Shown here: in pieces, positions 7,008 through 52,646 of the stretch
How positions within the stretch are numbered: the stretch's first letter is position 1
Layout: every line of letters starts with the position of its first letter
Source: Desulfobacterales bacterium
Lineage (GTDB): Bacteria; Desulfobacterota; Desulfobacteria; Desulfobacterales; UBA11574
Direction of reading: 5' to 3'
Length of the DNA stretch: 64,000 nucleotides
Assembly (NCBI GenBank): GCA_022340885.1
Contig: JAJDND010000159.1
Coordinates: forward strand, 3,395 to 67,394
The notes under the pieces: generated by a model
What the model saw: only the letters and a program-made list of their open reading frames with translations
What the model was told of the DNA's origin: nothing
Database searches by the model: none
Position numbers and translations under genes: made by a program

Positions 7008-9140
7008 ATGACCGTCAAACGCTTTTTCATTTTTGCGCCGATCCTGCTGATTATCGTTTTGCTGCAGTCTTATTTCTGGGAGCCGACATACGAAGAGCAG
7101 ACGAAAGGCAATCCTGCGCGCCTCACCGAATATATTACCGGGTCCATCGGTGACGCCAGCCTATTAAACCCCGTCATTGCGTCCGATTCTGCGAGCGGCG
7201 ACATTAACGGCCTGGTGTTCGAGGGTCTCATCGACTATAACAAAGATCTTCGATTCAGAGGTCGTGTGGCCAAATCATGGGAAATTTCTGAACAAGCGTT
7301 CTTTTACGTTAACCCGTCCGCCCGCATACCAGAATGGGGCATCGTCGATGCGGCTTCTCTGGCAACGCGCATTAAACACGCCCAAAAATCACCGATACCT
7401 TCAGACCCGAATCTTACAGCTTCTCTGAAGCGGATTACGAATATCTCCGTAATCCCGCCTCGAACATATACGGTTGAAAAATCAATCAAAAAGTCCGGCG
7501 GCGGCCAGCCAAAGACAATCCGGTTCCAGGTGACGGCACCGGCCAGGATCAAACTCGTTTTAAACCAGGTGGATCAGCATCTTTTTCAAAATCTCGCCCA
7601 TCTGTTGGGAAAAAATTATTTTGAATCCTTTCGCGGGAGAAACTACTTGACATGCGATGCCCGCCTTACCGCAAAACAATGGGCGGCGTTTGCAAAAGAA
7701 CTGATACCGGCCACCGAACACAATCCCATTTTGTTGTTTCATCTAAGGCCCGGCGTGAAGTTTCAAGACGGCTATCCGGTGAGTGCCGAAGATGTTAAGT
7801 TTACCTATGAAGCCATTATGAATCCGAAAAACCTGTCGCCGCTCCTCTCGGTTTACGAGCCGGTGAAAACCATTGAAGTGATAGATCCCTTAACCGTTAA
7901 AATCGTCTATAAGCGGCTCTACTCTCCGGCCCTTTCAACCTGGGGCATCGGAATTCTTCCGAAACATCTTCTCGATTCACAAGCTCTCAAAAAAGAAGCT
8001 GCAGCTCTCGGAAAAGATCAGAAAACCTTTTCCATTCGCCAAAGCGCATTTAACCGGCATCCCGTAGGATGCGGGCCATTTAAATTTCAAACATGGAAGT
8101 CGGATCAGTACATCATCCTGGATCGTTTTCACGATTACTGGGAGGGGCCGCCGAACTATCACCAATATGTCTATCGGATTATTCCCGATCCTTTGACCCA
8201 GGAAATGGAATTTTACGCCGGCACCCTCGATAGCTACAACGTCGAACCCCATCAGGTTATGCGCCTGGAAAAGGATCCGAGATTTCAGCACTTTTCCGGA
8301 ACATCCTTTGGATATACCTATATCGGTTACAACGAAAGACGCAAGCCCTTTGACGATCCTCGGGTGAGACGGGCCCTGGGAATGGCCATTGACATCAACA
8401 AAATCATCAAATATGTTCTTTACGGCCAAGGAGAACGGATCACCGGCCCGTTTGTCAAACAGACCGACTATTATGACCACAAGATCAAACCGCTTCCCTA
8501 CGATCCCCAAGGCGCGTTGAAGCTTTTGGCTGCGGCCGGATGGAAAAGAAACAAGTCCGGCCGCCTTGAAAAAAACGGCAGACCGCTTGAATTTACGCTG
8601 ATTACCAACAACGGCAACGAGCTTCGCAAGGCGGTACTGGCCATTGCGCAAGATGCATGGAAGCAAATCGGCATCGATATCCACACCGATATTCTGGAGT
8701 GGTCCGTGTTCATTCAGGAGCGCATAAATAAACTCGACTTTGACGCGGTGGTGTTGGGCTGGGGGATGGACATCCAGCCGGATCTTTTCCAGATATGGCA
8801 CTCGAGCCAGACCCATCCCTATCAGCTCAATTTTGTGGGGTTTAAAAACAAACGGGCCGATGAACTCATAATCAAAATCCGGCAGGAGTATAATCATGCC
8901 CGTCAGGTCGAACTCTGCCACAAACTTCACGCCCTTATCGCCGATCTGCAGCCGTATACCTTTCTTTATGTGAGCAAATGGACCGCTGTTTTGGACAAAC
9001 GCATCGTCATAAAGACCGTTGATGCCTCAGGCGCCGTACAATACAAAAAAATAACGCCCACCAAAACCGGTAATTACAGATATTATTTTAATCAATGGGT
9101 CAAGCTTCCACAAGCCCCCCAATTTATGGACAAAGGATAG
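7008..9140 (+). CDS. ABC transporter substrate-binding protein, peptide/nickel (family 5, OppA/DppA-like), unusually long
   Basis: 710 aa. N-terminal hydrophobic anchor, then family-5 SBP-like segments (GDASLLNPVIASDSASGDINGLVFEGLIDY, ...HLRPGVKFQDGYPVSAEDVKFTYE...). First gene of a five-gene importer. Confidence 0.9.
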   Translation: MTVKRFFIFAPILLIIVLLQSYFWEPTYEEQTKGNPARLTEYITGSIGDASLLNPVIASDSASGDINGLVFEGLIDYNKDLRFRGRVAKSWEISEQAFFYVNPSARIPEWGIVDAASLATRIKHAQKSPIPSDPNLTASLKRITNISVIPPRTYTVEKSIKKSGGGQPKTIRFQVTAPARIKLVLNQVDQHLFQNLAHLLGKNYFESFRGRNYLTCDARLTAKQWAAFAKELIPATEHNPILLFHLRPGVKFQDGYPVSAEDVKFTYEAIMNPKNLSPLLSVYEPVKTIEVIDPLTVKIVYKRLYSPALSTWGIGILPKHLLDSQALKKEAAALGKDQKTFSIRQSAFNRHPVGCGPFKFQTWKSDQYIILDRFHDYWEGPPNYHQYVYRIIPDPLTQEMEFYAGTLDSYNVEPHQVMRLEKDPRFQHFSGTSFGYTYIGYNERRKPFDDPRVRRALGMAIDINKIIKYVLYGQGERITGPFVKQTDYYDHKIKPLPYDPQGALKLLAAAGWKRNKSGRLEKNGRPLEFTLITNNGNELRKAVLAIAQDAWKQIGIDIHTDILEWSVFIQERINKLDFDAVVLGWGMDIQPDLFQIWHSSQTHPYQLNFVGFKNKRADELIIKIRQEYNHARQVELCHKLHALIADLQPYTFLYVSKWTAVLDKRIVIKTVDASGAVQYKKITPTKTGNYRYYFNQWVKLPQAPQFMDKG

Positions 9141-18010: not shown

Positions 18011-18733
18011 TCATTCCGCTACAAGCGATGAGAACTCGGGTTTGTTTTTACAATCTTCCGCCAGCCGGTGTGCTTTGCGTGTGGTCTCCGGCAGTCGATA
18101 TCCCCGACAGCATGACAACACAACATCAATCGAGAAGGCCAAATCCACCCGGTGCCCGATGGACACGAACACCGGTTTTACACTGGCACGCGTTCGCACA
18201 ACGGCACCGATGGTTTCGCCGTGATCCACAAGGGGCATATGGCTGCCGCGTTCCGCTTCCGGTTCCTGATATCGGCCGCATAACCGGGACTTTGCACATC
18301 CGATGGAAGGAATATCGGTCAGCAGCCCGATATGGCTGGCAATTCCCATTCGACATGGATGGGCAATTCCCTGGCCGTCGAAAATGAGAAGATCCGGTTT
18401 AGGCTCAATCCGGTCAAGGGCATCGAGAATTACCGCTCCTTCCCGAAAGGTCAACAGGCCGGGAATATATGGGAATTTAATGCGTCTTCCGGCCGTGGCC
18501 TGAGTGACAACTTCAAGACCGGGAAACGTCAGCAATACAACGGCGGCGCATGCCACACCGGACTTTATTCCCACATCGATGCCGGCCACGGTTTTGACTG
18601 CCGCAGCCCCGCATTTCCGGATGACAAGAGGTGCCAGTTTCTGCTGTAGTTTTCGCGCAGCCTGGGGCGACAAATCCCAATGATCAAAATTCAAAAATCC
18701 AAACAAAGGCTTGCCCTTAAAGGTTTTGGTCAT
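18011..18733 (-). CDS. nfi: Endonuclease V (deoxyinosine 3' endonuclease)
   Basis: 240 aa. VAGIDV..., PYIPGLLTFREGAVILDAL, LLIFDGQGIAHPCRMGIASHIGLLTDIPSIGCAKSRL are classic Nfi motifs. Confidence 0.92.
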   Translation of the reverse strand: MTKTFKGKPLFGFLNFDHWDLSPQAARKLQQKLAPLVIRKCGAAAVKTVAGIDVGIKSGVACAAVVLLTFPGLEVVTQATAGRRIKFPYIPGLLTFREGAVILDALDRIEPKPDLLIFDGQGIAHPCRMGIASHIGLLTDIPSIGCAKSRLCGRYQEPEAERGSHMPLVDHGETIGAVVRTRASVKPVFVSIGHRVDLAFSIDVVLSCCRGYRLPETTRKAHRLAEDCKNKPEFSSLVAE

Positions 18734-33920: not shown

Positions 33921-36900
33921 TTAAAACAGCTTTAACTGCCGGTGGCCGGTTTCGGTTTTTTTTGACGGCGCCATCGTTTCATGGGTAACCAAATTTTCTT
34001 CGATTTCACGGACAAACGGCGACAGGGTCTGCTTCTTGATTTTCCCGAATCTTTTTCGTGTTTTTGAAAAGGTGATAAAAAGGCGATGTTTGGCGCGGGT
34101 CATGGCGACATAAAACAGGCGCCGTTCCTCTTCGAGGTTCGAGGGTTCGTTATATACGGATTGAAACGGCAGCAAACCGTTTTCACAGCCACAAATAAAA
34201 ACCACCGGAAATTCCAGCCCTTTTGAAGCGTGCATGGTCATCAATGAAACGCATTCACATTGATATTGGTACATATCGGTATCTGTCTGTAATGCGCAAG
34301 TTTTCAAAAAATCTTTGGCATCGGTATCGGAATGTGTATAAAGATCGATCACGTGCTTTAAAGCACGTTCTGTTTTTTGATCCCATTGCTCAGAATTTGA
34401 CAACCGAGTGTAATCTAAAATAAAAAGAAGCTTTTCCCCCATGGATAGGTTATGTATCCTATGTTTTATTTTAAAAATTTCGCCGGTTACATCAACAATC
34501 TTTGTTTGCAGTGTTCTTCCCATCTCTTTAATGGGAATCCTGCGGACATGTATCAGCGCAGTTTCCAGCGACATTCGTTTCCCGATGCACCAACTTTTGA
34601 AAATTTGCAGAGATTTTTTTGCCAGCGTCGGTTTGATTATTTTCGAGCTTCTTTCAAAGTCGGAAAAACTTCCGGTTCCCTCCACCACTTTTAATAATGA
34701 CACCAGATTGCCGATGCTTTCTGAATGGAGTATATTTTCTCTGCTCACGGTTTGATAAGGAATACCTGCGGCATCGAAAATTTGTGACAACACCTTGTTT
34801 TGTTCCGAAGTGCGATACAGAACGGCAAAATCAGAAAATCCCAAATTTTCCTGAAACGGTTGTTCTCGAACATGACCAAAATCAATGGAATGAAACCCTG
34901 TGCCCCCCATCAGTTGTTCTATGTTTTTTCCGATGGCTACCGCTTCTGATTTTTCAGAATTTGCCTCGATAACAGAAATCGTTTTTTTACCGCTTATTTC
35001 TGAATAGATGCGTTCTTTAAATGAAATTTCGCCCTGCGCTTGAATCACTTGATAGGAACCGTCGAGAATGGTCTGGGTCGATCGGTAGTTTTGCGTCAGT
35101 TTGATGATTTGCGCATCCGGATAATCGTTAACAAAGCGGTTGAAATATTCGGCGCTCGATCCTCTGAATCCATAAATGCACTGGTTAGGATCACCGACGA
35201 CACAAATTTTTCTATCGAGGCCGGGTGGAACAAGGGCTTTGATGATCCTGTACTGGCCGTGATTTAAGTCTTGATATTCGTCCACAAAAATATATTGAAA
35301 AAACTTCCGATATGAATCGGTGACGTGATTATTTTTCTCGAGCAGGCGAACGGTTTTGAATATCAGATCCTCATAATCGCAAAGACTTTGTATGGCCAAC
35401 AATTCTTGATAGGACTGATAGACTGCGTGAAAATATTTTTTCTTTGGATCGTCGGTATGCTTTAACCATTCATTGGGATCCAGAATGTTTTGCTTGGCGG
35501 AGATGATCTGTTCAAGCAACTTTTTGGGTTTGATATGTATTGAATCCAGCGATGTTTTGGCCTGTTTGATGGCATCGTTTAACAAAAGTTCACGATCTTT
35601 TTCGTCAATGACCGTATAGGCGTCGTTTTCCTGTTGCTTTAAAATATGAAAGCAAAGGCTGTGAAACGTTCCGACGAAAGCCTTTGTTTTCGTTTTTTTC
35701 AACAGTCGTTCGAGTCGGTGGCGCATTTCAAGGGCCGATTTATTGGTGAATGTTACCGCAAGGATATTTTCCGATGGAACATTTTTTTCCAGGGTAAGAA
35801 AGGCCATTTTATGGGTCAGCGTTCTGGTTTTGCCGGTTCCGGGACCCGCAATGATGATCATCGCCTTTTCGTTATTTTTCACGGCACGGCGCTGTTGGCG
35901 ATTCAGCGCTATGGTGTAGTCTTTTTCTGCTGCCGGCGTTTGAGACCCATCTTTTAAGAATTTATGAAATAATAAAGATGCAGTCGGTTTTTGATATTCC
36001 TTTTTTTGTATATTCTCGTTGGTCCGGGATGCTTTTACAAAAAACAAAGGTTTTTGCCTGTTTAGCTTTTGTCGTTCTTCTGAATCGAATATTTTTATTT
36101 TTCCGAATTCTCCATCATAACCGGGCAATAGAACGATGTCGTTCTGTCTTACTTTCGTGATGGCGTCGCTCAGCAGGGGAAGACCCGCGGAATCTATTTT
36201 ATCATTGTCCAGCGTCGTTAAAATGTCCAATTCAGACCCCAATTTTTCAAGCAAATCTTTATAGGTTTCCATTACTTTTTTTGAGGTCGGACCGACGTTC
36301 AACACTTCGGACAAGATTTCGACAAGTGGAATCGCATTGAAATACGGATGGTGGCTTTTAGGTTTGACCCCCGGCGGTCGATCCGCCAGTTCCTCAACCC
36401 GGTACAACACGCCCAAGGTCATCGGTTTATTACAGACCGGGCACATGCCGCCAGACTTCTTTGTTTTATCGGGCCAGGAGCGGACTTGACAATTCCGATG
36501 ACCGTCAAGATGATATTTTCCTTCCTCCGGATAAAACTCCAGCGTACCGATGAATCTTTTGGGATCCCCGCTTTGGAGTGCGGATCTTATGGCCGAAAAT
36601 GACAATTGGGTATCAAACAGGTTTGCTTCCCTTCCCAGTTTTAATGGTGAATGGGCATCGGAATTGGAAATCAGTGTCATCCCGTCCAGTGCCGAGACGC
36701 GCCAATTCATTTCAGGATCCGAAGAAAGACCTGTTTCAACGGCAAAGATATGAGACGTGAGATCCTCGAAACATTCATCTATAGAATCGAAACCTGATTT
36801 TGAACCCAACAGCGAAAACCACGGCGTCCAAATATGAGCGGGTACGAGAAACCCACTATCGTCGGTTTCGAGAAGCATTTCCAAAAGATCCCTGGCATCA

Positions 36901-37325
36901 AGACCCAGTATCGGCCGGCCGTCGGATTTGATATTTCCGATCTTATCGAGTTTTGAAGCAAAATTATCCGCCTGATTAACATCAGACAAAAAAACAAGAT
37001 TATGATTCTTTCGGGTCTTTTTATTTTTCTTGTAGATATTGCTGATTTCAGAAACCAGCATAAAGCGCACTTCTCTGCGGCACGACTCAGGTACCTGTCG
37101 ATCGCATTGTCTTGAAAATTCTTTTTTCAATTCAAACAGTCCGGATTCCGCAGGCACCAGTTTTTCTTTGATTTCCGCCAACCAGCCCGGATGCGTAAAA
37201 TCGCCAGTCCCGATAACGGTGATGCCTTTAAGCTGAGCCGCAATATATAAGCTTTCAAGATCCAAATTTTTTGACGTTGCTCTTGAAAAACGAGAATGAA
37301 CGTGAAAATCCGCTACAAATTTCAT
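33921..37325 (-). CDS. Fusion protein: N-terminal PHP-domain EndoQ-like nuclease + C-terminal UvrD/PcrA-type SF1 helicase
   Basis: 1134 aa. Residues 1-~415: FHVHSRFSRATS, VPAHIWTPW, NSDAHSP, and an H-x2-C-x15-C-x2-C cluster (GHRNC...CPVC). Residues ~470-1134: AGPGTGKT, VDEYQD, MTMHASKGLEFPVVF, YVAMTRAK. Confidence 0.9.
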   Translation of the reverse strand: MKFVADFHVHSRFSRATSKNLDLESLYIAAQLKGITVIGTGDFTHPGWLAEIKEKLVPAESGLFELKKEFSRQCDRQVPESCRREVRFMLVSEISNIYKKNKKTRKNHNLVFLSDVNQADNFASKLDKIGNIKSDGRPILGLDARDLLEMLLETDDSGFLVPAHIWTPWFSLLGSKSGFDSIDECFEDLTSHIFAVETGLSSDPEMNWRVSALDGMTLISNSDAHSPLKLGREANLFDTQLSFSAIRSALQSGDPKRFIGTLEFYPEEGKYHLDGHRNCQVRSWPDKTKKSGGMCPVCNKPMTLGVLYRVEELADRPPGVKPKSHHPYFNAIPLVEILSEVLNVGPTSKKVMETYKDLLEKLGSELDILTTLDNDKIDSAGLPLLSDAITKVRQNDIVLLPGYDGEFGKIKIFDSEERQKLNRQKPLFFVKASRTNENIQKKEYQKPTASLLFHKFLKDGSQTPAAEKDYTIALNRQQRRAVKNNEKAMIIIAGPGTGKTRTLTHKMAFLTLEKNVPSENILAVTFTNKSALEMRHRLERLLKKTKTKAFVGTFHSLCFHILKQQENDAYTVIDEKDRELLLNDAIKQAKTSLDSIHIKPKKLLEQIISAKQNILDPNEWLKHTDDPKKKYFHAVYQSYQELLAIQSLCDYEDLIFKTVRLLEKNNHVTDSYRKFFQYIFVDEYQDLNHGQYRIIKALVPPGLDRKICVVGDPNQCIYGFRGSSAEYFNRFVNDYPDAQIIKLTQNYRSTQTILDGSYQVIQAQGEISFKERIYSEISGKKTISVIEANSEKSEAVAIGKNIEQLMGGTGFHSIDFGHVREQPFQENLGFSDFAVLYRTSEQNKVLSQIFDAAGIPYQTVSRENILHSESIGNLVSLLKVVEGTGSFSDFERSSKIIKPTLAKKSLQIFKSWCIGKRMSLETALIHVRRIPIKEMGRTLQTKIVDVTGEIFKIKHRIHNLSMGEKLLFILDYTRLSNSEQWDQKTERALKHVIDLYTHSDTDAKDFLKTCALQTDTDMYQYQCECVSLMTMHASKGLEFPVVFICGCENGLLPFQSVYNEPSNLEEERRLFYVAMTRAKHRLFITFSKTRKRFGKIKKQTLSPFVREIEENLVTHETMAPSKKTETGHRQLKLF
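33924..33938 (-). other. C-terminal QLKLF: candidate beta-clamp-binding motif of the nuclease-helicase
   Basis: The minus strand reads cag tta aag ctg ttt taa, giving Q-L-K-L-F-stop. This fits the clamp-binding consensus QL[S/D]LF / QLxLF at the extreme C-terminus. Confidence 0.55.
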
Positions 37326-37707
37326 ATCTCCATCACAATTTAGGGTGTGAAACTTAAGTTGTTCGTTTTGTATTAAAAACTCTTGTCACAAGTCCTTAAA
37401 CAGTATATATATTTATATTAACTAAATTAAAATACCATATATGGTATATTTTGATTTTTTTTTAAGCTTTAATATAAGCGTCAGTGGTGCTGCCTTTTAT
37501 ATTGATATTTTTTCGATAAATCATTACTTATGAACAATAAATTTTATTCCTTTGATAATCTATTATTTATTTAAACGCTTCTTGGTTTTTATAAACAAAA
37601 TAAAAATGGTTATTTTTTAGTAAAATAAATAGGTTATGAAATTATTATATATATCGACATTCTTTTAATATAATATTATCTAAAGATATATAAATAAGGA
37701 ATAGAGA
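37326..37707. other. Extremely AT-rich divergent intergenic region (promoters of the nuclease-helicase and dnaN; possible DNA-unwinding or origin-associated element)
   Basis: Counted example: only 8 G/C in the 60 nt 37621-37680. Long A/T runs throughout. I found no canonical DnaA box (TTATCCACA). Confidence 0.3.
37432..37447. repeat. Perfect 16-bp palindrome ATACCATATATGGTAT
   Basis: Read directly from the sequence. It is self-complementary over all 16 positions and sits centrally in the AT-rich spacer. Confidence 0.6.
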
Positions 37708-41261
<3,554 letters not shown>

Positions 41262-41294: not shown

Positions 41295-42086
41295 ATGTAT
41301 ATACATAAGATTCAGGCAAGGGATTTACCGGATCTTTGGTTTCAGGCGGTTCATGATATTCTGGATCATGGCAGAAAGTTTACCATCGACCGCGGAAGTT
41401 ATGCTGGACAGACAAGACTCGAATATGATTTTTTTACGGGTCACATTAAATATCCGGGCACCCATCCACTGATACCCGACATACCCCCGGCATGCGGTAT
41501 CCCGAATCCTGTTGAAGAAGCTTATATTTACGGTGGTGACGGCTATGAAAGATCGTATATCGAATATGTCATGACCGGTCAAAAAGAACCCGGTGAATCC
41601 TATACCTATGGAGAAAGGCTCACACGAGCGCCGATTTCCGAGGAAAAGCTTCGGTGGTGGAAGGAAGGAAACGCGGAAATTATCGATAAAAGAGACGTGG
41701 ACGGACGAGCGGTTTTTGAAGAGGATGGACAGCTTTTTTTAAATCAAATCGAATGGATCATTCAAACCTATCAAAAATATGGAAGAAGAAACAATCAAAT
41801 GGTACTGCAAGTGGCGCATCCGTCGGATCTAACACTTCTGGATCCGCCGTGCCTGCGTTCCATCGATACCCGAATTCAAGATGACGCGCTTCATTTTATC
41901 GTGTATTTTCGTTCATGGGATTTGTGGGGAGGCATGCCGGCGAATCTGGCCGGAATACAAAATCTAAAAGAATACATGGCTGGCGAAATAGGGGTTAAAG
42001 ACGGTGAAATGATCGTCGAAAGCAAGGGGCTTCATCTTTACGGGTATGCGGAAGAGCTGGCGAAACTAAGGTGTATGAAGACTTAA
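41295..42086 (+). CDS. thyA: Thymidylate synthase, divergent (archaeal-like) ThyA-family enzyme
   Basis: 263 aa. DPPCLRSID (catalytic Cys), YFRSWDLWGGMPANLAG (compare YQRSCDVFLGLPFNIAS in E. coli ThyA; the Asn is retained, implying dUMP specificity), GLHLYGY (compare THLYSN), and GRRN (the RR pair). GGAGGAG RBS. Confidence 0.78.
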   Translation: MYIHKIQARDLPDLWFQAVHDILDHGRKFTIDRGSYAGQTRLEYDFFTGHIKYPGTHPLIPDIPPACGIPNPVEEAYIYGGDGYERSYIEYVMTGQKEPGESYTYGERLTRAPISEEKLRWWKEGNAEIIDKRDVDGRAVFEEDGQLFLNQIEWIIQTYQKYGRRNNQMVLQVAHPSDLTLLDPPCLRSIDTRIQDDALHFIVYFRSWDLWGGMPANLAGIQNLKEYMAGEIGVKDGEMIVESKGLHLYGYAEELAKLRCMKT

Positions 42087-49989: not shown

Positions 49990-50173
49990 AGTCAGCTTGT
50001 TTGAAAAAGGACCAGGTTTGAATTAAAGCATTCCGATTCATAACAGAAATGTTTGGGCCCTCCGTCTTAAAATCCTGCACCGATGCCGGCTCCGCTTAAC
50101 CTCAATTACATACAGTTTAACTCATCTGAATAAAAGGAATATGTTTGCTTCAAATTGAATCTTGGAGAGGATA

Positions 50174-51841
50174 ATGGAACACGCACGACTACTTATTGCC
50201 ATCGTACTTTCTCTGCTTGTTTTTATTGTTTGGAATGCGTTTTTTCTGGATAAGGAGCAGAAAAAACTTCCCAAACAAAACATAAAAACCCAGGAGCAGG
50301 TCACAAAGGGCTCGGAAAAAACCGCAAAAGAAACAACCGAAACAAAAGCGGCCTTGCCCGAATCGACAACACCGGCAAAAACACCCGCTTTAGAATCGGT
50401 CGCGTCTTCACGAACCATTACGGTCAATCTGCCTTTGTACACGGTAAAAATATCTACAAAAGGCGCTGTGTTCAGAAGTTTCGTGCTCAAAAAGTATCGA
50501 AAAACCATTAAACCCGATTCACCTTTGCTGGACATGATCAATCCGGATTTGACCCAAGGAACAGTACGGGTCGGGTATGCTGAAAATAGCATTCAAGGAC
50601 TTGATAATGCAGTTTTTTCGGCTCATCTGAATAAAGATGCCGTCGATATTAAAGATAAACCCACACCAATCGTCTTTTCTTGGAAATCCCCCCGGGGCGT
50701 CGTGGTTGAAAAGAGATTTTTGTTTTCCCCCAAAACCTATACGATCGGTCTCGATGTTATCATTAAAAACAGCTCCGCACAGCCGATTAAAGACAGCCTG
50801 ACCCTGTCTTTGTTAAAAAAAGGACCGGAAAACGCAAGCAGATACGGTTTTGAAGGGCCGAGCGCGCTGATAAACAACAAGCTCGAGGAGATCAAGATCA
50901 AGAAGATTAAAAAACAAGACGTCTATCCGGGGAAATTGGAATGGATTGCCATCCAAGGCCGTTATTTTCTTTCCGCCGTTATGCCCAATGAAGCGATCGA
51001 CGCCCGTATGCACCTTAGCAATGGGGGCGACATCCTGACGAACACATATGTCCAGCCGGAACAAACGATTCTTCCCGATCAACAACATGTTTTTAAATAT
51101 AAAGTCTTTTTTGGGCCCAAAAGCATGGCCGTGCTAAAGTCCGTAGACTATGACCTCATCAAGGCCGTGAATTTTGGCATGTTTGACATCCTTGCCAAGC
51201 CTTGCGTTTATATCATGAATTATATCTACAAATTCATCCCCAACTATGGGGTGGCCATCATTATTTTGACATTACTCTCCAAAATTATTTTATGGCCCCT
51301 GGGTAATAAGAGCTATAAATCAATGGCTCAAATGAAAAAAATTCAACCGTTGATGGCGGAAATCAAAGAGAAATATAAAGATGACAAGAAAAAAATGAAT
51401 GAAGAGATGATGGGGTTATATAAAACATACAAGGTGAACCCCCTGGGCGGATGTCTTCCGATGGTTGTGCAAATTCCGGTGTTTTTTGCCCTTTACAGGA
51501 TGTTGTATGGCGCCATCGAACTCAGACATGCGCCGTTTATATGGTGGATTAACGACCTGTCGGCGCCCGATCGCCTCTTCAGATTCGATTTTCACATCCC
51601 CTTTATGCAGCCGCCGTACGGAATTCCGGTTTTAACGATAATTATGGGGGTGACCATGTTTATTCAACAAAAAATGTCGCCGCCGGCTGGCGATCCTACT
51701 CAGGCAAAAATGATGATGTTGATGCCGATTGTTTTTACCGTAATTTTTATCAATTTTTCTTCGGGACTTGTTCTGTACTGGCTGGTCAATAATGTCATTT
51801 CCATGATTCAACAGTATTACATTCAGAAGAAAAACGCTTAA
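50174..51841 (+). CDS. yidC: Membrane protein insertase YidC
   Basis: ATG at 50174 is preceded by GGAGAGG. N-terminal TM, large periplasmic domain, and a conserved core (KMKKIQPLMAEIKEKYKDDKKKMNEEMMGLYKTYKVNPLGGCLPMVVQIPVFFALY). Confidence 0.93.
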   Translation: MEHARLLIAIVLSLLVFIVWNAFFLDKEQKKLPKQNIKTQEQVTKGSEKTAKETTETKAALPESTTPAKTPALESVASSRTITVNLPLYTVKISTKGAVFRSFVLKKYRKTIKPDSPLLDMINPDLTQGTVRVGYAENSIQGLDNAVFSAHLNKDAVDIKDKPTPIVFSWKSPRGVVVEKRFLFSPKTYTIGLDVIIKNSSAQPIKDSLTLSLLKKGPENASRYGFEGPSALINNKLEEIKIKKIKKQDVYPGKLEWIAIQGRYFLSAVMPNEAIDARMHLSNGGDILTNTYVQPEQTILPDQQHVFKYKVFFGPKSMAVLKSVDYDLIKAVNFGMFDILAKPCVYIMNYIYKFIPNYGVAIIILTLLSKIILWPLGNKSYKSMAQMKKIQPLMAEIKEKYKDDKKKMNEEMMGLYKTYKVNPLGGCLPMVVQIPVFFALYRMLYGAIELRHAPFIWWINDLSAPDRLFRFDFHIPFMQPPYGIPVLTIIMGVTMFIQQKMSPPAGDPTQAKMMMLMPIVFTVIFINFSSGLVLYWLVNNVISMIQQYYIQKKNA

Positions 51842-51857
51842 TAACGGAGGTTCTATC

Positions 51858-52646
51858 ATGTCACCCAGCTTGGAGTTCGAAGATAAAAACGTTGAAATGG
51901 CTGTCAAAAAAGCCTGTGAAGAACTAAATATACCCAGGGAAAAACTCAAACACGATGTTATCTCGTATGGATCGACCGGGATTTTCGGATTGGTGGGCAC
52001 CAAGAAGGCGCGTATTCGTGTAACCATACCCAGATCTTCCCAAGCAGCGAAAACGGGGACCCCAGATAACAAAAAATCGAAAAAGGTTTTATCCAAACAC
52101 GTTGTCGAAGATACCGGCTCTAAAAGCGATGCCTCGATTATTGAAGACACAGCAGACTTTCATGCAGAGGACGATGCCAAAAACGTCGGCAAAGAAGCAT
52201 TGCAGCGTATCGTCGATTTTATCACCCAAGATGCCACCATCAGCATCCGGGAGGAATCGAACAGAATCTTTTTTAATGTCAACGGCGGGAACTCTGCCGT
52301 TCTTATCGGAAAGCGCGGACAAACCCTTGATGCGATACAATATCTCGTTGATAAGATTGTAAATAATAAAAGAAAAGAGCGTGTTGCCGTTCAGGTGGAT
52401 GTTGAAGGCTACATGGAGAAACGACGCGTCAATCTGGAAAAAGCAGCTGCAAGACTTGCAGAAAAAGTTAAGAGAACCGGAAAACCGGCAACGCTGGGAC
52501 AAATGAATTCACATGATCGAAGAATCGTTCATATTGCCTTGAAAAATGACGCTATGGTCAGAACCCAGAGCTTGGGGCAGGGAACCGTAAGGAAACTTGT
52601 GATATTCCCCAAAAAAAATTCGTCGCGGAAAAATAATGGAAGATGA
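51858..52646 (+). CDS. jag: RNA-binding protein Jag (Jag_N + KH + R3H)
   Basis: 262 aa. N-terminal FEDKNVEMAVKKACEELNI, KH-like LIGKRGQTLDAIQYL, and R3H region LGQMNSHDRRIVHIALK. The position between yidC and mnmE is canonical. Confidence 0.88.
   Translation: MSPSLEFEDKNVEMAVKKACEELNIPREKLKHDVISYGSTGIFGLVGTKKARIRVTIPRSSQAAKTGTPDNKKSKKVLSKHVVEDTGSKSDASIIEDTADFHAEDDAKNVGKEALQRIVDFITQDATISIREESNRIFFNVNGGNSAVLIGKRGQTLDAIQYLVDKIVNNKRKERVAVQVDVEGYMEKRRVNLEKAAARLAEKVKRTGKPATLGQMNSHDRRIVHIALKNDAMVRTQSLGQGTVRKLVIFPKKNSSRKNNGR

Follow-up and report, generated by a model that had tools for sequence, protein, structure and literature searches.

EndoQ enzymes were reportedly sorted in a 2017 paper into three families 'by domain organisation'. 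The best-described members are archaeal, and for the Pyrococcus furiosus enzyme (PfuEndoQ) the PHP metal ligands and the roles of these residues (PMC5961232) as well as the residues that form the lesion-recognition pocket (PMC8307549) have been assigned. The Thermococcus kodakarensis enzyme (TkoEndoQ) binds PCNA through a C-terminal PIP box with a KD of 55 nM, and the ring stimulates EndoQ (PMC4858679), in agreement with the preliminary description of the locus presented here. In bacteria, the Bacillus enzyme is cited as nicking 5' of dU, dI and AP sites (cited in PMC5961232 and PMC6202378). Bacterial EndoQ homologues have also been found to carry beta-clamp consensus motifs (Shiraishi et al., 2016, Sci Rep 6:25532; PMC4858679); Supplementary Fig. 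S1 of that paper places such motifs at about positions 945-1244 in homologues of many phyla, and, for the short bacterial enzymes, gives QKSLF and similar sequences, of the internal-motif type discussed below, as their C-terminal clamp motif. A model from 2015 already had a helicase acting once EndoQ has cut (PMC4357722, Fig. 10 legend).

The window, a 64,000-nucleotide stretch of DNA from a Desulfobacterales bacterium, contains a gene in which an EndoQ module is joined to a helicase. The features of this locus, with the evidence for each, are as follows.

33921..37325, minus strand: EndoQ-UvrD fusion gene, complete (single ORF; 120 full-length homologues of equal length and architecture)
36063..37325, minus strand: EndoQ module, residues 1-421, with PHP catalytic, Zn-binding and C-terminal helical domains (TIGR00375, PfuEndoQ, Foldseek)
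36651..37304, minus strand: span with the PHP metal ligands and lesion-pocket residues (PfuEndoQ alignment; invariance in homologues)
36432..36500, minus strand: predicted Zn-binding cluster H276-x2-C279 ... C295-x2-C298 (alignment to the PfuEndoQ C4 site)
36042..36056, minus strand: internal motif of the clamp-binding type, Q424-K-P-L-F428, at the end of the EndoQ module (conservation; short-form C-termini)
35910..36041, minus strand: variable, predicted-disordered linker, residues 429-472 (no column conservation; AF2)
33987..35909, minus strand: SF1A UvrD/PcrA/Rep-type helicase module, residues 473-1113 (Pfam, pcrA model, structures, Foldseek)
33939..33986, minus strand: Lys-rich variable C-terminal linker, residues 1114-1129 (variable yet consistently basic in homologues)
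33924..33938, minus strand: C-terminal clamp-binding-type pentapeptide Q1130-L-K-L-F1134 (conservation in homologues)
37326..37707, no strand: divergent 382-bp spacer between the fusion gene and dnaN, candidate oriC (GC content, DnaA-box-like 9-mers, GC skew)
37708..38826, plus strand: dnaN, for the beta sliding clamp to which the fusion protein is predicted to dock (matches to all three Pfam beta-clamp domains)

The gene is genuine and intact: translation gives a single uninterrupted, ATG-initiated ORF of 1134 aa, with its stop codon at 33921-33923, that joins the EndoQ module to a DNA-unwinding motor and a terminal clamp-type motif. Recomputing the ORF reproduced the single reading frame reported in the preliminary description, and all of the motifs and coordinates listed there were recovered in the translation, namely FHVHSRFSRATS, VPAHIWTPW, NSDAHSP and H276/C279/C295/C298 in the EndoQ half and VDEYQD, MTMHASKGLEFPVVF and YVAMTRAK in the helicase half. 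The AF2 model of the protein is mediocre (mean pLDDT 69.5, pTM 0.49), and the packing of the two modules against each other is not reliably readable from it.

The assignment of residues 1 to about 415 to an EndoQ-like enzyme holds at the level of both sequence and fold. In an HMM search, residues 5-410 cover TIGR00375 end to end (2-374 of 374, E 3.6e-49), residues 5-415 align with PfuEndoQ 5-385 (5zb8/7k30, E 6.6e-52), and Foldseek against the same structures returns a TMt of 0.84-0.86 with an rmsd of 3.4-3.7 Å. The TIGR00375 score of 168.1 bits falls below the NCBIfam curated cut-off of 326.6, a value set by the database for calling a 'hypothetical equivalog' rather than on biochemical grounds; judged by these profile scores, the module is a divergent subfamily relative to TIGR00375. 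The metal ligands of the N-terminal half are all intact, with H8, H10, E93, H108, H164, D223 and H225 aligning with PfuEndoQ H8, H10, E76, H84, H139, D193 and H195, and the pocket residues T167, W169, E197, G199, L200, S201 and N221 aligning with T142, W144, E167, G169, L170, S171 and N191. Ligands and pocket residues alike are invariant in an alignment of 54 fused homologues, and the position of PfuEndoQ L168 is occupied by Thr198. The predicted Zn ligands H276, C279, C295 and C298 align with PfuEndoQ C249, C252, C268 and C271, so that the first Cys is replaced by His; all four, including this His, are invariant in the bacterial relatives in both alignments. By analogy with the characterized archaeal and Bacillus EndoQs, the substrate range would comprise dU, dI, dX and AP sites.

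The second half had been described as a complete SF1 UvrD/PcrA helicase spanning residues ~470-1134, and its core is indeed complete, although the usual C-terminal domain is missing. Residues 474-736 match Pfam UvrD-helicase (E 3.6e-74), residues 995-1088 match UvrD_C (E 2.9e-45), and UvrD-DNA complexes are recovered by Foldseek at E 1e-34. The SF1A helicase motifs (Q, I, Ia, II, III, IV, V and VI) and the 1A/1B/2A/2B layout are all present; the translation contains AGPGTGKT (Walker A, residues 493-500, 35826-35849), TFTNK, DEYQD (35268-35282), GDPNQCIYGFRG, NYRST, HASKGLEF and VAMTRAK, all of them invariant among the 54 fused homologues. The pcrA model is matched only at 4-645 of 725, PcrA (1pjr) at 12-646 of 724 and UvrD (2is1) at 9-649 of 680, and the C-terminal domain of PcrA/UvrD is thus absent in both the model and the structure alignments. 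In PcrA and UvrD, this domain contacts RNA polymerase, UvrB or MutL. The pcrA, uvrD and rep equivalog scores (461, 386 and 390 bits) lie below cut-offs of 911-1168, and the alignments to these models stop at about position 645 of 715-725. On these scores and the missing partner-binding domain, orthology to PcrA, UvrD or Rep was rejected, and the module is assigned from its profile matches to a distinct UvrD-like subfamily. Since TIGR00375 likewise scores below its cut-off, the fusion protein is an equivalog of no characterized enzyme, and its specificity could differ.

How widespread the fusion is can be seen at several levels of divergence. Full-length homologues with the same architecture number 120 (53-100% identity, 1127-1175 aa), 126 of the best 150 matches at 50% clustering are fused, and 39 complete fused genes lie on metagenome contigs; most fused forms keep a terminal Qx(x)LF after a variable linker. 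The protein in the window is unexceptional within this very widespread 'long' bacterial EndoQ family. A new observation is that the helicase half has been lost in close relatives, in which it is deleted or decayed and the EndoQ half is intact. The Desulfobacterales short form arises secondarily in this manner, the helicase half having decayed at the same locus, which indicates that coupling to unwinding is dispensable in at least some lineages.

Taken together, these features lead us to propose, with moderate confidence, a bifunctional DNA-repair enzyme in which clamp-recruited nicking 5' of dU, dI or AP sites is coupled to strand displacement. The EndoQ module would flip a base that is deaminated (dU, dI, dX) or missing (AP site) into its pocket and cut directly 5' of the lesion, which would produce a 3'-OH and a lesion-carrying 5'-phosphate. 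The SF1A helicase, presumably a translocase of the 3'->5' type and tethered by the flexible linker of ~45 residues, would load at the nick on the undamaged strand and peel away the lesion-bearing 5' strand, after which the 3'-OH would be extended by a polymerase, the flap removed by a 5' nuclease and the nick sealed by ligase. The beta sliding clamp would recruit the protein, and probably stimulate it, through docking at the C-terminal QLKLF and possibly also at the internal QKPLF, by analogy with the PIP-box-PCNA interaction of archaeal EndoQ. The proposal draws on the homology and fold of both modules, the intact catalytic, pocket, Zn and helicase motifs, the conservation of both short motifs inside otherwise unconserved, predicted-disordered segments, and the wide distribution of the fusion.

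The same two modules could be coupled differently. UvrD/PcrA-type enzymes are familiar as protein-displacing translocases, and the helicase may instead be an ATP-driven motor that scans for lesions, or that strips product-bound EndoQ, RecA or a stalled polymerase from the nick, with Pol I removing the strand. Because EndoQ imposes a sharp bend on DNA and keeps hold of the flipped base (PMC8307549), release of the product might be the rate-limiting step. The long linker, as modelled, would let both modules act independently on the same site, and an accessory role in speeding up the reaction would agree with the loss of the helicase in relatives. Against this, all of the unwinding motifs and the 1B and 2B domains are kept, and sequence alone offers nothing to separate translocation from strand displacement. 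We regard this alternative as unlikely, and strand displacement remains our preferred function for the helicase.

The clamp-dependent part of the proposal relies on the two short motifs. The QLKLF-stop ending at 33924-33938 (residues 1130-1134), pointed out in the preliminary description, is strongly conserved: across the 54 fused homologues, Q1130, L1133 and F1134 do not vary and L1131 reaches 90% conservation or more, QLKLF itself occurs at the C-terminus in 89/120 homologues and Q[LMI]xLF in about 115/120, the strict motif lies within 2 residues of the end in 80/126 distinct 50%-identity clusters, and 37 of the 39 complete long forms at metagenome loci keep it. AF2 assigns pLDDT <50 and no secondary structure to residues 1112-1134, and the conservation of a terminal pentapeptide after an unconserved linker is the pattern expected of a functional short linear motif. 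The second clamp-type motif, QKPLF, is newly noted here and, on alignment, sits at the point where stand-alone bacterial EndoQs end: the short enzymes terminate exactly at this position. In the 54 homologues, Q424 and F428 do not vary, L427 shows at least 90% conservation, the next ~45 residues are unconserved, and residues 424-472 are again predicted at pLDDT <50 with no secondary structure. The pattern Q..[LMFI][FLWYM] occurs at the aligned internal position in 89/126 diverse fused representatives.

The head-to-head arrangement with dnaN across 382 bp, which had been offered as a further link to the clamp, is confirmed as a layout but fails as functional evidence. Fusion genes adjoin dnaN at 13/13 Desulfobacterales genome loci and at only 6/45 metagenome loci with at least 3 kb of upstream sequence (absent in 39/45); the arrangement is lineage-specific synteny within Desulfobacterales. 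The spacer at 37326-37707 is the sole stretch of the window below 25% GC (21%), contains three same-strand DnaA-box-like 9-mers and conserved blocks across 10 related loci, and coincides with a turn in the cumulative GC skew. It probably holds the promoters of both genes, and the adjacency here probably reflects an origin-proximal position, which would explain it without a functional link. The nfi gene noted in the same window (18011-18733, minus strand) is borne out as Endonuclease V (E 2.8e-71); it lies ~15 kb from the fusion gene and is unlinked. That the fusion protein acts at the fork, or as a system parallel to nfi, is speculation.

With the synteny set aside, one may ask whether QLKLF and QKPLF bind the beta clamp at all, or are instead intramolecular, autoinhibitory or other-partner elements of a free nuclease-helicase. 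Their clamp assignment is a prediction from sequence, dnaN adjacency lends it no support because it is lineage-specific, and the textbook clamp consensus QL[SD]LF has Ser or Asp at position 3, where this protein has Lys. However, position 3 is the variable one in relatives (K, T, E, S, R, D or G), placement at the very C-terminal end, behind a basic and disordered linker, in more than 100 divergent clusters is the typical layout of a clamp motif, the same motif type ends the short forms, and the equivalent site in the archaeal orthologue serves PCNA. Independence from the clamp is thus rather improbable, and we infer that the fusion protein binds it.

A role in defense, as an anti-phage or foreign-DNA restriction enzyme acting on uracil-containing or deaminated DNA in the manner of Gabija or RecBCD-type systems, is highly improbable. 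The helicase half matches PADLOC GajB models (best E 2.6e-98), and a review has suggested that bacterial EndoQs might also counter uracil-DNA phages (PMC8307549). These matches are only to the generic UvrD fold, a GajA-like (OLD/TOPRIM nuclease) partner was not found near the fusion gene, and the neighbors are the housekeeping genes dnaN, gyrB (which adjoins dnaN downstream), a cyclopropane-fatty-acid (CFA) synthase and RND efflux genes rather than a defense island; a Gabija-type GajB identity was therefore rejected. The gene is, moreover, syntenic and vertically conserved across an order, no partner gene conserved across the family was found among 98 loci, and clamp tethering would point to the host replisome. 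That two genes were joined artificially, by misassembly or a frameshift, has practically no probability left, as no point was found in its favor and the uninterrupted architecture recurs in 120 close homologues from independent assemblies, 126/150 representatives and 39 metagenome genes.

A more far-reaching version of the clamp-recruited repair enzyme can be put forward only tentatively, and we consider it doubtful: a self-contained, glycosylase-independent excision machine in which QKPLF was inherited from a stand-alone EndoQ and QLKLF gained with the helicase, so that both pockets of the beta dimer would be filled or the clamp handed from nuclease to motor. If true, incision and unwinding would be coupled on clamps left behind the fork, and a biochemically undescribed bacterial pathway for dU, dI and AP repair would exist across hundreds of divergent lineages.

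Ultimately, the fusion protein is best understood beside the systems that it resembles. Archaeal EndoQ (P. furiosus PF1551, T. kodakarensis TK0887; PDB 5ZB8, 7K30-33) has PHP, Zn-binding and helical domains collinear with those of the fusion (31% identity), identical metal ligands and lesion-pocket residues, and likewise a clamp-docking-type short motif after the helical domain and a short spacer. It differs in its first Zn ligand (Cys instead of His), in its docking motif, which is a PIP box (QRSITEFL / QRTLLQYI) where the fusion has the bacterial beta-clamp type (QKPLF / QLKLF), and in lacking the appended 660-residue UvrD-type helicase; the fusion, in turn, lies below the TIGR00375 cut-off. 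Short bacterial EndoQs (Bacillus pumilus / B. subtilis; ~405-465 aa in Thermodesulfatator, Geobacter sulfurreducens and others) share the EndoQ module and end in a Qx(x)LF equivalent to internal residues 424-428, but have no helicase.

The nearest match is the 'long' bacterial family of Shiraishi et al. (2016), to which the protein belongs: Desulfobacterium autotrophicum WP_015906045, Desulfobacter curvatus, Geobacter metallireducens and Chondromyces apiculatus have homologues of 945-1244 aa with a terminal QLxLF (QLKLF in Chondromyces), and the protein shares their phylogenetic surroundings (Desulfobacterales). The accessible parts of that paper's text and supplement tabulate the C-terminal motif only, with no mention of a helicase, an internal second motif or activity. 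The earlier statement that no enzyme of this architecture has been characterized therefore stands as regards biochemistry, none having been found for any fused EndoQ-UvrD member in the searchable literature, but the architecture had not gone unnoticed.

Among helicases, UvrD, PcrA and Rep (PDB 2IS1-6, 1PJR/3PJR, 1UAA) have the 1A/1B/2A/2B core and all motifs in common with the fusion at 26-30% identity, whereas the fusion carries an N-terminal nuclease, scores below all of their equivalog cut-offs, and has the Lys-rich linker and QLKLF in place of the C-terminal domain of ~75 residues found in UvrD/PcrA. AddA, RecB and AdnB are likewise single polypeptides with both an SF1A motor and a nuclease (Foldseek on the motor, E 1e-17 to 1e-19), and the fusion, unlike these enzymes, has no partner subunit nearby. 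Their nuclease domain, of the PD-(D/E)xK type, is C-terminal and attacks DNA ends, while that of the fusion is an N-terminal, PHP-type, lesion-specific nicking enzyme.

The fusion gene is a single uninterrupted ORF with an ATG start and 1134 codons, arranged head-to-head with dnaN across an intergenic spacer of 382 bp, as the preliminary description had read it. Its placements of the Walker A motif and of the C-terminal pentapeptide proved exact when recomputed from the translation.

33921-37325 (-): fusion gene; stop codon at 33921-33923
35826-35849 (-): Walker A motif AGPGTGKT, residues 493-500
33924-33938 (-): C-terminal QLKLF, residues 1130-1134
37708-38826 (+): dnaN, a 372-aa ORF; gyrB is the next gene
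18011-18733 (-): nfi, endonuclease V (E 2.8e-71)
41295-42086 (+): 263-aa ORF directly after gyrB

The clamp gene was assigned as dnaN because its ORF carries all three beta-clamp Pfam domains. The endonuclease V gene that had also been pointed out in the window was confirmed; it lies 15 kb from the EndoQ gene amid unrelated transporter and channel genes and is thus not linked to it. The ORF following gyrB shows only a weak, partial thymidylate-synthase match (E 2.9e-10, profile positions 94-212 of 266); it may encode a ThyA-like enzyme that has diverged, a notable neighbour for a dU-repair gene if so. GC content is uneven along the window, at 50-56% in the 1-6 kb and 26-32 kb stretches and 39-44% across 32-44 kb, where the fusion gene, dnaN, and gyrB are found.

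The N-terminal half had been likened to endonuclease Q, and both profile and fold comparisons agree. Residues 5-410 span the TIGR00375 model end to end in a profile search (E 3.6e-49), residues 5-415 match residues 5-385 of P. furiosus EndoQ (5ZB8, 7K30-33; E 6.6e-52), and a Foldseek comparison of the AlphaFold2 model with the same enzyme gave target-normalised TM scores of 0.84-0.86 with an rmsd of 3.4-3.7 Å. In the P. furiosus enzyme, H8, H10, E76, H84, H139, D193, and H195 bind the catalytic zinc ions and are needed for activity (Miyazono et al., 2018; PMC5961232); the expected metal ligands are present on alignment, with H8, H10, E93, H108, H164, D223, and H225 matching this set. The aligned lesion-pocket residues are T167, W169, E197, G199, L200, S201, and N221, and both groups of residues are invariant across the 54 fused homologues of alignment A1 (53-88% identity). 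While archaeal EndoQ has a C4 zinc site, the window protein has H276/C279/C295/C298, and this His-for-Cys swap is invariant in bacterial relatives. By analogy with the characterised enzymes, the N-terminal half is very probably an active EndoQ-type lesion endonuclease.

The C-terminal part was correctly described as a complete SF1 helicase: residues 473-1113 form an SF1A module in which every helicase motif is present and conserved, with Pfam matches to UvrD-helicase (E 3.6e-74) and UvrD_C (E 2.9e-45) and matches to the PcrA, UvrD1, UvrD, and Rep structures (E 4e-92 to 5e-70). The match to PcrA/UvrD models ends at about position 645 of about 720, indicating that the C-terminal domain of those helicases is absent; where they would have it, the window protein has a lysine-rich linker of 16 residues followed by QLKLF. 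The window protein's scores reach neither the NCBIfam equivalog cut-off for TIGR00375 nor those for pcrA, uvrD, and rep. Thus, both halves belong to divergent subfamilies and are not orthologues of a characterised enzyme.

This architecture is widespread. In a word-indexed search, 120 full-length homologues were recovered, 1127-1175 aa long and 53-100% identical, chiefly from MAGs of Desulfobacterales and other Thermodesulfobacteriota; the only names they carry are "UvrD-helicase domain-containing protein," "PcrA," and "TIGR00375 family." The precomputed Pfam accession PF27218 is carried by all of these fused homologues (P0001-P0120) and presumably covers the EndoQ-like region. Residues 1-440 were also run exhaustively with HMMER against a set holding one representative for each 50%-identity cluster; 3670 proteins passed E <= 1e-3, and 1066 passed E <= 1e-30. 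Of the best-scoring 150 of the 3670, 126 are fused, as judged by a length of at least 940 aa and a Walker A motif. Metagenome contigs contributed complete genes of both kinds, 39 long and 20 short (409-470 aa). The scan of genome contigs, made with one query protein, gave close relatives only, so the evidence for taxonomic breadth comes from the representative search, the loci on metagenome contigs, and the species listed in Suppl. Fig. S1 of PMC4858679; taxonomy for cluster members of 10 distant representatives was almost nil, amounting to one Bacillota MAG. An assembly or frameshift artefact can be dismissed, as the same architecture occurs in hundreds of independent sequences. The window protein is an unremarkable member of what is a very large family.

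The C-terminal pentapeptide, proposed earlier as a clamp-binding motif, is conserved in orthologues. QLKLF itself closes 89 of the 120 close homologues and Q[LMI]xLF about 115 of them, and the terminal motif is kept in 37 of the 39 complete long metagenomic forms; Q1130, L1133, and F1134 are invariant in A1. The 15-20 residues ahead of it vary freely among the 120 homologues apart from a consistently basic character. Among the 126 fused representatives, each from a different 50% cluster, 80 have the strict motif within 2 residues of the end, and in many of the remainder it lies a few residues further inward. Residues 1112-1134 have pLDDT below 50 and no secondary structure in the AlphaFold model. 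A conserved terminal motif behind a variable basic flank in a low-pLDDT segment has the hallmarks of a short linear motif that functions on a flexible tail.

A second motif of this type, Q424-K-P-L-F428, directly follows the last strand of the EndoQ module. In A1, Q424 and F428 never vary and L427 reaches at least 90% conservation; the roughly 45 residues beyond the motif are unconserved and predicted to be disordered. In the alignment, stand-alone EndoQs end exactly at this position (...QQLSLF, ...GQATLF, ...KQKTLF, ...GQKRLF), and Q..[LMFI][FLWYM] is found there in 89 of the 126 diverse fused representatives. The fusion thus reads as a short EndoQ with its own clamp motif, a linker, a helicase, and a new C-terminal clamp motif.

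The helicase half has also been lost from some relatives, by deletion or decay. In six related Desulfobacterales MAG loci (L006-L009, L011, and L013), the gene at the same position is only 423-466 aa long (in L011, whose contig stops inside the gene, at least 439 aa), and its EndoQ module is intact, 71-77% identical to that of the window, and next to dnaN. Remnants persist: L006 retains helicase residues 518-588 and 973-1039 out of frame (7355-7774), and in L013 the final 29 codons, those for QLKLF among them, survive in another frame (7377-7463). Because the more distant loci L002-L004 and L014 (54-57% identity) are fused, the fused state is probably ancestral in the clade, in which the helicase has probably been lost at least twice. 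These losses show that the EndoQ module can stand alone, and the helicase is dispensable in some lineages, though widely retained.

The proximity to dnaN, pointed out earlier, did not hold up as a sign of functional linkage: among the 14 genome loci and 80 metagenome loci compared, it is confined to the Desulfobacterales clade. Every one of the 13 Desulfobacterales genome loci that include sequence upstream has a divergent dnaN-gyrB pair, 340-680 bp away from the EndoQ gene. Where metagenome contigs reach 3 kb or more upstream, 6 of 45 loci have the pair, all six encoding DnaN proteins very similar to that of the window. Adjacency is missing in the other 39 (EndoQ-module identity 51-66%). A relaxed DnaN profile search (E <= 10) gave no further weak matches. 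When 1876 ORFs from 98 loci were clustered all against all, no family-wide conserved neighbour emerged beyond dnaN/gyrB of the close clade, the other large clusters being the EndoQ gene itself and ORFs overlapping it. The arrangement is therefore inherited synteny within one order, and a simpler account lies in where the locus sits, apparently close to the origin.

Several features of the spacer and its surroundings bear on that position.

37326-37707: spacer, GC 21%, the sole stretch of the window below 25% GC
37528: DnaA-box-like 9-mer TTATGAACA, 2 mismatches
37589: DnaA-box-like 9-mer TTATAAACA, same strand, 2 mismatches
37651: DnaA-box-like 9-mer aTATCGACA, same strand, 2 mismatches
37382-37392: 5-1-5 palindrome CTTGTCACAAG, near-invariant block
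37397-37409: near-invariant block TAAACAGTATATA
37433-37446: perfect 14-bp palindrome TACCATATATGGTA, near-invariant block
50162-51841 (+): yidC, 12 kb right of the spacer
51858-52646 (+): jag, directly beyond yidC

Cumulative GC skew has a broad minimum at 29-37.5 kb; the spacer lies at its right-hand edge, and from there the skew climbs steadily. The classical origin-proximal genes yidC and jag are consistent with a window spanning the replication-origin region; dnaA is not adjacent to the spacer. Since the spacer contains no canonical DnaA box (TTATCCACA, <= 1 mismatch), its reading as a candidate oriC is suggestive only. Footprinting of the fusion-gene upstream region in 10 related loci placed the near-invariant blocks 50-120 bp upstream of the ATG, and these may be promoter, operator, or origin elements.

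Judged by sequence, an EndoQ-type active site and pocket and a UvrD-type motor are both intact. A flexible tether is predicted to join them, with two conserved clamp-type motifs in predicted-disordered segments; at a pTM of 0.49, the full-length AF2 model is uninformative on inter-domain geometry. SF1A helicases have 3'->5' polarity, so the motor, loaded at a nick onto the intact strand, would displace the strand that carries the lesion. The nick would come from the N-terminal module: because the EndoQs characterised in Pyrococcus, Thermococcus, Methanosarcina, and Bacillus incise immediately 5' of dU, dI, dX, and AP sites (PMC8307549; PMC6202378), the module would do likewise, with a 3'-OH on one side of the cut and a 5'-phosphate end bearing the lesion on the other. 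The resulting 5' flap or gap would pass to a 5' nuclease, polymerase, and ligase, and a pathway sketch from 2015 already had a helicase step after EndoQ incision (PMC4357722). By analogy with PCNA, the beta clamp would recruit and stimulate the enzyme; T. kodakarensis EndoQ has a C-terminal PIP box through which it binds PCNA (KD 55 nM), and the PCNA ring stimulates the enzyme (Shiraishi et al., 2016; Sci Rep 6:25532, PMC4858679).

Clamp-recruited EndoQ nicking with strand displacement is, on balance, the favoured overall picture. Its parts differ in strength: at least the C-terminal motif probably binds the clamp, and a helicase acting specifically to displace the strand from the protein's own nick is a tentative proposal drawn from other SF1A enzymes. 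The intact motor could instead serve as an accessory translocase or in turnover, which seems unlikely. That the motifs do not bind the clamp is more doubtful still. A defence function is highly improbable and was rejected, as PADLOC yielded only generic GajB/UvrD matches.

The preliminary description thus read the sequence accurately and drew a reasonable functional idea from it, although the dnaN adjacency adds nothing. Its claim to novelty does not hold, as long bacterial EndoQs and the clamp motif at their C-terminus were put on record ten years ago in Suppl. Fig. S1 of PMC4858679. No mention of the helicase fusion, the internal motif, or the biochemistry of a fused member was found in the EndoQ papers searched. 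According to Miyazono et al. (2018; PMC5961232), EndoQs have been sorted into three families by domain organisation, two of them bacterial (Shiraishi et al., 2017; BBB 81:931). The table in Suppl. Fig. S1 lists short EndoQs from Thermodesulfatator (QKSLF, 421-425) and Geobacter sulfurreducens (QGGLF, 422-426) and long ones with clamp motifs at positions 941-1244, including those of Desulfobacterium autotrophicum, Desulfobacter curvatus, Geobacter metallireducens, Chondromyces apiculatus (QLKLF), Caldilinea, Rhodothermus, Zymomonas, Treponema, Clostridiales, actinomycetes, and others. Tractable hosts with a long form on that list include Geobacter metallireducens, Zymomonas mobilis, and Desulfovibrio vulgaris. 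Recent reviews place EndoQ in only "a few bacteria," which the search results here contradict.

What is new here is the scale of the family, together with the recurrent helicase loss, an apparent second, internal clamp-type motif, and a putative clamp tail in place of the UvrD/PcrA C-terminal domain. EndoQ-like proteins make up about 1,000 clusters at 50% identity (E <= 1e-30), the best-scoring of them mostly helicase-fused and clamp-tagged, and the current names "UvrD-helicase domain-containing protein" and "PcrA" conceal the nuclease half of these genes. For biochemists the family makes a good, if unsurprising, target, and the fusion would offer a natural system for nick hand-over from a nuclease to a UvrD-type motor on a sliding clamp. 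If the proposed picture is true, deaminated bases would be removed by one protein in many anaerobes and soil bacteria, alongside UDG/BER and EndoV.
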